From assembly GCF_006345805.1 (NCBI RefSeq), contig NC_042997.1, forward strand, positions 4,402,001 through 4,466,000: a DNA stretch of 64,000 nt. The letters run 5' to 3'. Origin of the DNA: Octopus sinensis. Lineage: Eukaryota. Below the pieces are notes generated by a model. It was not told the DNA's origin. It saw nothing but the letters and a program-made list of their open reading frames with translations, and did not search any database. Shown here piece after piece: positions 9,150 to 9,187 of this stretch; the first letter of the stretch is position 1; each line of letters begins with the position of its first letter. Made by a program: the position numbers and the translations under genes.

Positions 9150-9187
9150 CAGTTGAAAAGGTCACAAAATGACCGAAACCGGTACTG
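9150..9187 (+). ncRNA. Minimal type-I hammerhead ribozyme (U3-A8 core variant) in the PLE 3' pLTR
   Basis: CAG-TTGAAAA-GGTCA-CAAAA-TGACC-GAAA-CCGG-TA-CTG: helix I CAG/CTG, helix II GGTCA/TGACC, palindromic helix III ACCGGT, GUA cleavage triplet. Confidence 0.7.

Follow-up and report, generated by a model that had tools for sequence, protein, structure and literature searches.

The motif at 9150-9187(+) of the window, by which we mean the whole 64,000-nucleotide stretch of DNA analysed here, is probably an example of a published U3-A8 variant of the minimal hammerhead ribozyme of Penelope-like element (PLE) pLTRs, and we put the probability of this reading at about 0.6. So understood, the ribozyme would be slow and dimer-dependent, and would act in transcripts of tandem copies and not at this locus. 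Judged by sequence, the motif is a minimal hammerhead of the metazoan PLE kind, including a Watson-Crick pair between positions 3 and 8, and its carrier is an EN+ PLE (RT plus GIY-YIG) of the Neptune or Nematis type as defined in PMC8557442. The features that bear on this reading are the following.

4287-5215, minus strand: inverted, 5'-truncated copy of the 3' arm, about 99% identical
4348-4385, minus strand: inverted-arm hammerhead, same motif (N3 = 4382, A17 = 4351), helix II of 4 bp plus a U.U
5218-6018, plus strand: ORF1-like frame, its 5' end cut by the inversion junction
6089-6095, plus strand: slippery-type heptamer, T TTT TTA, in the stretch shared by the ORF1 and RT frames
6217-8418, plus strand: PLE RT-endonuclease ORF with GLKF, DKG, YLDD, a CX4CxxC linker and a CCHH-type GIY-YIG
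8323-9248, plus strand: 3' arm, comprising the last ~95 nt of the ORF and the 3' UTR/pLTR; simple repeats form a block at about 8540-8790
9150-9187, plus strand: minimal type I hammerhead with core UUGAAAA (U3-A8), helix II of 5 bp
9249-9275, plus strand: one-ended PLE tail of 27 nt, then (TA)n; missing from the left arm
45222-45556, both strands: fold-back remnant of 335 bp holding both second-site motifs, 90.8% arm identity
45304-45336, minus strand: inverted partner of the second motif, core start 45334(-), likewise A13C
45441-45474, plus strand: second U3-A8 motif, UUGAUAA (N3 = 45443, C at position 13 = 45464, A17 = 45472)

The U3-A8 hammerhead and its carrier

The preliminary description had reported a TTGAAAA core, GAAA, helix II and a GUA site in both inverted arms, and base-by-base inspection confirmed each of them. 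Helix II, which it called intact, is so in the (+) arm with 5 bp, but in the (-) arm consists of 4 bp plus a U.U; this reflects the single inter-arm difference inside the hammerhead, at the top of helix II (A at 9164, T at 4371). In the (+) motif, stem I is formed by CAG (9150-9152) and CTG (9185-9187), and the core from U3 to A9 occupies 9153-9159. Helix II (GGTCA/TGACC, 9160-9164/9170-9174, loop CAAAA) is closed by G10.1-C11.1 (G9160-C9174), and the unpaired base that usually, though not always, separates A9 from 10.1 in PLE minimal hammerheads is absent, G9160 directly following A9159. GAAA (G12-A13-A14-A15.1) at 9175-9178 is succeeded by CCGG at 9179-9182 and by U16.1 (9183) and A17 (9184) of the GUA site, the predicted cut falling after A17; positions 9178-9183 thereby spell the self-complementary ACCGGU. 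Stem I has 3 bp before an A.A mismatch and 4 more beyond it (CGUU/AAUG, 9145-9148/9189-9192), and both this stem and helix II (5 or 4 bp) fall inside the 3-7 bp ranges given in Fig. S7 of PMC4209133. All core positions other than 3 and 8 are intact.

The proposal that the hammerhead belongs to a PLE pLTR was borne out, in that an ORF with RT and GIY-YIG domains lies upstream, its stop codon 735 nt before the motif. The RT profile RVT_1 scored 33.2 bits in this ORF (cut-off 29.6, E 5.5e-8) and the GIY-YIG profile 21.6 bits, slightly under its cut-off of 22.6 (E 2.7e-4); 476 full-length relatives were found at E <= 1e-30 with both domains present, the best of them 60% identical. In the protein, GLKF is found at residue 2, DKG at 108 and CxxC at 643-646 ahead of YIG, H665 and H682 are invariant in 22 sequences, and the CX2-5CxxC linker between RT and EN, a Neptune feature shared with Nematis, is CGRPNCGIC at 599-607. 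The label Neptune-like, as used here, follows motif definitions; our trees covered the window element and its relatives. The N-terminal ~40 codons of the RT ORF (from about 6089) are in another frame, with a frame break near 6217. The ORF1-like frame, which we infer to be ORF1, gave no Pfam match; it ends with a stop at 6018, out of frame with what is probably its C-terminus (..HFL..). A T-run at the same ORF1/RT junction in a relative (L001, about 1202) suggests, together with the heptamer of the window element, a conserved programmed -1 frameshift. Downstream of the heptamer in the window, structure prediction gave no strong stem.

Between the two arms of the element, 10 substitutions and 4 indels were counted over ~926 bp. 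The left arm runs into (TA)n at 4240-4286, and (TA)n is present at both element ends. An inverted, 5'-truncated arrangement is known for PLEs (PMC8557442), as is the concept of a one-ended tail (PMC8557442, PMC11167929). Since the two arms are one insertion, they count once as evidence for U3-A8. The only other copy in the window is one diverged sister remnant.

This sister holds the second U3-A8 core, which had been placed at 45440. TTGATAA is indeed present, but it starts at 45443(+) and 45334(-) and, carrying A13C, is not intact. Both arms of the remnant have G12-C13-A14-A15.1, keep CCGG and GUA, and have a stem I of 2 A-U pairs; a tail related to that of the main element starts near 45219(-) beside it. 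Downstream of the motif the second site is homologous to the main element (score 57 versus 26.6 +/- 4.6, reached in 0/1000 shuffles), and it is therefore not an independent example of U3-A8, which the two share by descent and would have inherited from a common family ancestor. Both subfamilies in the window keep U3, A8, CCGG and GUA, and their helices II differ in sequence yet pair. The active register of the 45443 motif has a predicted energy of +1.8 kcal/mol, versus -4.3 when the register slips so that U3 and U4 are paired; the slipped stem I is favoured by 6.1 kcal/mol, and the motif is likely inactive. C13 is common to both arms at 45222-45556, and the template therefore likely carried C13 already at copying, inter-arm conversion being the alternative. 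A ~210-nt SINE-like repeat, present in two copies that are 80% identical and lie beside (TA)n (45563-45774(+) and 24809-25016(-)), abuts this remnant with one of them.

Chance controls, database searches and other repeats

That the main motif is a chance resemblance within AT-rich repeat DNA has next to no probability in our view. We used a strict descriptor with a Watson-Crick 3-8 pair, helix II of at least 4 bp and stem I of at least 3 bp, which found 4 sites in the 64-kb window; block-wise dinucleotide shuffles (n = 100) averaged 0.32 sites, and 0.00 once GAAA and a palindromic helix III were added. The place of the motif in the PLE pLTR, moreover, equals that in its relatives. What can be said for chance is that the fold stability of the monomer by itself is not significant (z = -1.18) and that the match to Rfam RF02275 (Hammerhead_HH9, clan CL00010), although aligned core-to-core at 9139-9203 with E 0.0091 in a 141-base search, scores 19.5 bits, below the gathering score of 52. 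With positions 3, 8 and 13 left free, the descriptor found 8 sites in the window versus 1.47 in shuffles; seven of the eight have a Watson-Crick 3-8 pair (4 U-A, 3 C-G), while 1.05 of the 1.47 chance hits lack one. One further pattern had 4 window matches and 0 in 100 shuffles and, as it was derived from the hits, serves as a census only.

Searched with the whole window, Rfam returned no hammerhead among the best 150 of 159 matches, nearly all of which were microsatellite-driven miRNA matches. Nor did it report a hammerhead in any of five relatives that have one (L001, L002, L005, L006 and L009), and it is therefore no test for such motifs; four of these five are C3-G8, so that the miss is not peculiar to U3-A8. 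The preliminary description had held that CUGANGA searches overlook the motif because of its core. This is true of the published descriptor (cuganga ... gaaannuh; PMC4209133 Fig. S7), but the core is not the sole cause, as the motif fails that descriptor on two counts, its core and its two extra helix III bases, and Rfam misses C3-G8 motifs as well.

Several candidates were set aside as likely chance: a match at 7987(-), which is antisense inside the ORF, is non-palindromic and has GTAA; a match at 34969(-) with A3/G8 and GGAA; and loose regex matches at 31717, 32806, 41136, 47007, 25625 and 884, in which no helix II or stem I was seen by eye.

Counting the main, 45443, 17429, 37577 and 30144 sites, the 64 kb contain five hammerhead families. 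The site at 17429-17507(-), in a fold-back at 17388-17786, is a C3-G8 hammerhead whose helix II region measures 60 nt and whose palindrome is CGAUCG (z = -3.56). Hammerhead core positions have decayed in its opposite arm, and the fold-back is likely a PLE remnant in (TA)n. The hammerhead-like motif at 37577-37640(-) has C3-G8, 43 nt in its helix II region, palindromic CCUGCAGG and a GUC site; its minimum free energy (MFE) structure lacks the hammerhead fold. A third, at 30144-30189(+), has C3-G8, palindromic CGUACG and a U.U beside helix II, and lies close to inverted ends at 30009-30092 and 30296-30379.

Repeats and arms were mapped by self-BLAST of the window, in which (TA)n swamps repeat finding. 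An 807-codon RT frame occupies 26947-29370(-) (RVT_1, E 4.4e-29), and decayed non-LTR fragments related to it lie at 45848-47084, 44317-44532 and 3307-3495. A 72%-identical repeat pair (11452-12065 and 53367-53974), which may derive from a DNA transposon, overlaps a 280-codon frame with a weak UQ_con score (E 0.008). Fold-back repeats at 38452-39064 and 24393-24849 lie beside (TA)n and gave no hammerhead match in our scans.

Covariation and predicted activity of the 3-8 pair

The premise that the active fold contains a 3-8 pair agrees with PMC3884650. A contig scan for relatives with DNA context yielded nine loci on eight contigs (L001-L009). These contigs are titled bacterial MAGs yet encode Penelope-type RT-endonucleases, and are likely eukaryotic (animal) DNA that strayed into bacterial bins. 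On five of the eight contigs a hammerhead lies 152-689 nt beyond the ORF match, with C3-G8 on four (L001, L002, L006/L007 and L009) and with U3-A8 and U17 on one (L005); the L002 motif, which has a bulged U before G12, escaped the scan and was recognised by eye in the flank. Flanking sequence ends 158 nt after the match in L003 and at the match in L004, and L008 has no hammerhead within 619 nt. L006/L007 hold a tandem array in which 3,083 nt separate identical motifs. The L005 motif has a stem I made up wholly of A-U pairs, and its MFE structure is not a hammerhead. For pair counts, motif positions were tabulated from motif anchors, MAFFT motif alignments being out of register and left unused.

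With the window element included, six ORF-linked motifs comprise 4 C-G, 2 U-A and 0 mismatched 3-8 pairs, which in this small sample would occur 1 in 15 times if positions 3 and 8 were independent (p = 0.067). This goes some way towards the earlier proposal of a compensatory change, but the inverted arms and the 45443 site do not add to it: as arms of a single insertion and as a homologue, respectively, they are ruled out as independent covariation. In a tree of seven rows (the window element and L001-L006, with L007-L009 left out and a long branch as outgroup), the window element pairs with C3-G8 L002 (92/98). The best tree needs 2 changes of the 3-8 pair, and a single change suffices in 0/200 bootstrap trees. 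One U3-A8 clade uniting the window element with L003-L005 is rejected (p-AU 0.011), this group having been chosen after viewing a 48-row quick tree; in that tree the window element is not joined with L002, and a single U3-A8 origin is compatible with it. Taken as sequence comparisons, these results suggest that the 3-8 pair may have switched repeatedly among related PLEs. CpG decay was rejected as the origin of U3-A8, given that neither C3 nor G8 would sit in a CpG context here.

An alternative that we consider fairly unlikely is that the motif is a catalytically dead or irrelevant relic. C3U and G8A would then be AT-biased transitions that became fixed in a lineage with no further need of hammerhead cleavage, and the motif would have been retained for a structural or protein-binding role or simply through inertia. 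The window is microsatellite-rich with 34% G+C, and both changes are GC-to-AT transitions, as decay of this sort would have it. The sister subfamily, too, was copied despite A13C in both arms and its slipped stem I. In the Poseidon PLE, whose hammerhead needs the element's protein, hammerhead mutants leave in vitro insertion unaffected and no RNA-seq reads mark the cut (PMC11167929). A pairwise mutagenesis scan of one type III hammerhead found a G-C swap to be the sole rescue of the 3-8 pair (PMC9901934), and U3-A8, with no U-A rescue, could accordingly be nearly dead. Decay would not, on the other hand, be expected to leave 3-8 mismatches at 0 among the 6 ORF-linked motifs and 0 among 7 repeat-associated window sites (8 matches), nor every other core position of the main element intact. 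U3-A8 also recurs in Schistosoma Cercyon elements (PMC4209133) and, likely independently, in L005, and ribozymes with a covarying 3-8 pair are stated in PMC3088659, citing 2007 work, to be active in vitro.

We return to the reading of a slow, dimer-dependent ribozyme, which the predicted folds would accommodate. Helix III of the monomer would need a 2-nt loop, and the predicted two-strand MFE structure is a double hammerhead that lies 7.5 kcal/mol below two monomers. Unable to close helix III round such a loop, two copies would anneal via ACCGGU and exchange stem I strands to give the double hammerhead; there, cutting after A17 (9184) would proceed slowly and perhaps only with the element's own protein.

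In the hammerhead reaction the general acid is proposed to be the 2'-OH of position 8, and G12 is the general base. U3-A8 would give position 8 a looser hold than C3-G8 does, and would face competition from U3-A17 pairing stacked on stem I, a point that the preliminary description did not raise. U3-A17 has a predicted probability of 0.72 for the monomer and 0.83 for the dimer; the pair is worth 1.1 kcal/mol per site (2.2 per dimer) and would extend stem I over the cleavage site, whereas the 3-17 pair probability is 0.0 in L002 and L006, both with C3, and in the U17-bearing L005. ViennaRNA leaves core tertiary contacts unscored, and the U3-A17 trap is therefore a lead only and may be overstated. 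A C3-G17 trap is the proposed cause of low activity in minimal hammerheads, and tertiary-stabilised hammerheads tolerate C3-G17 pairing (PMC3884650).

Could U3-A17 be a selected off-state, tuned to keep the transposon RNA intact until U3 is switched over to A8 by dimerisation or by binding of the element's protein? We regard this model as improbable. The dominance of U3-A17 in the predicted ensemble, its lack in L002, L006 and L005, and the retention of A17 by both window U3-A8 subfamilies are what it would lead one to expect, and a C3-G17 trap has been proposed (PMC3884650) and a protein-assisted PLE hammerhead reported (PMC11167929). It rests, though, on a predicted gap of 1.1 kcal/mol per site; A17 is found with C3 too (L002 and site 17507), so that it may simply predate U3; and other cases of U3-A8 have U17 or G17 (L005 and rows of PMC4209133 Fig. 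S3).

Still less probable, we believe, is a fully compensated, efficient ribozyme on par with C3-G8 motifs, as the preliminary description in its strong form would have it. U-A and C-G are isosteric, U3-A8 hammerheads occur in nature (PMC4209133, PMC3088659), and G10.1-C11.1 and the remaining core bases are intact in the main element, all of which an efficient ribozyme would share. Yet C3-G8 minimal PLE motifs themselves cleave at a low level as dimers and not at all as monomer (PMC4209133), low activity is general among PLE minimal hammerheads (PMC4209133, PMC6765202), the scan in PMC9901934 gave no U-A rescue, and the monomer here lacks helix III and faces a predicted U3-A17 competitor. Several results thus point to low activity of the U3-A8 motif, namely the modelled U3-A17 pair and, by analogy, the missing U-A rescue and the weakness of PLE minimal hammerheads.

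At this locus, the preferred reading would have the ribozyme silent. The two main-element motifs are on opposite strands, which precludes a cis dimer, and the 159-nt arm ends are predicted to anneal at -222.9 kcal/mol, the local fold reaching -18.3. From whichever side read-through came, the antisense arm would lie first in the transcript. Frameshifted, without an upstream sense pLTR or tandem partner, and with the antisense arm met first, the window copy is likely inert, and we infer that any real ribozyme activity belongs to tandem copies elsewhere.

A more ambitious synthesis has repeated U3-A8 attenuation in PLEs, a U3-A17 off-latch freed by the dimer or the RT-endonuclease, and a sister that lost catalysis yet was copied. 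We hold it to be a long shot; if true, the latch and the A13C sister would form a natural series for separating RNA cutting from a protein-gated structure in PLE retrotransposition.

Comparison with known systems

The novelty implied by the preliminary description does not survive comparison with the literature. U3-A8 was printed for PLE hammerheads in 2014, in the Cercyon elements of S. mansoni, where a corresponding descriptor gave ~1,300 hits (Cervera and De la Peña 2014, PMC4209133), and rows S. mansoni (4) and (3) of Fig. S3 in that paper begin UUGAAAA and UUGAUAA. Natural U3-A8 covariation in several other hammerheads was reported in 2011 (Perreault et al., PMC3088659). The variant and both heptamers being in print, the value of the present motif as a discovery is small. 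In the available parts of the literature, including the supplements of PMC3088659 and PMC9901934, we found no published rate for a U3-A8 ribozyme. A search of literature text found no report that combines U3-A8 with a palindromic helix III insert, no U3-A17 competitor and no A13C in a PLE motif; among the papers listed for octopus and hammerhead ribozyme, none concerned this motif by its title or the start of its abstract. The function of PLE hammerheads is called unclear in PMC8557442.

Schistosoma mansoni Cercyon (PMC4209133) is alike in its type I topology, its PLE repeats, its U3-A8 and both heptamers, and opposite-strand motif pairs 100-700 bp apart have also been described in that paper. 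Unlike the window motif, in which a palindromic insert of 2 nt yields ACCGGU and no extra base is present, Cercyon motifs are without loop 3 (GAAA-NN-UH), and A9 is followed by an additional base; N17 is A in the window motif, and its carrier is Neptune-like, whereas that of the S. mansoni motif is Cercyon. The absence of the unpaired base after A9 is shared with two rows of PMC4209133 Fig. S3. The PLE hammerheads with palindromic helix III (Drosophila, rotifer, shrimp and mosquito; PMC4209133) share the short stem I, the palindromic 15.2-16.2 and the insert, and are known for a dimer requirement and low in vitro activity; the Fig. S3 rows of this kind are all C3-G8, whereas the window motif joins the palindrome with U3-A8.

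The hammerheads of Perreault et al. (PMC3088659) show the same covariation and, in the available parts of that paper, are not described as PLE motifs. Compared with Rfam HH9, the window motif has a shorter stem I (3 bp before the mismatch versus a 6-bp helix I with loop-loop contact), is without loop 3 and carries U3-A8.

With the Neptune/Nematis EN+ PLEs (PMC8557442) the carrier shares GxKF, DKG, the RT, the CX2-5CxxC linker and the C-terminal CCHH GIY-YIG, and also the inverted 5'-truncated copy, the one-ended tail and the microsatellite target; unlike them, the window copy is frameshifted and lacks a tandem pLTR. What the present case would add to these known systems is a Neptune-like carrier, a motif in which U3-A8 and a palindromic insert in helix III occur together, and modest support for more than one switch of the 3-8 pair among related elements. 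The intact U3-A8/A17 motif with its A13C sister is a cheap test pair for the role of PLE hammerheads.
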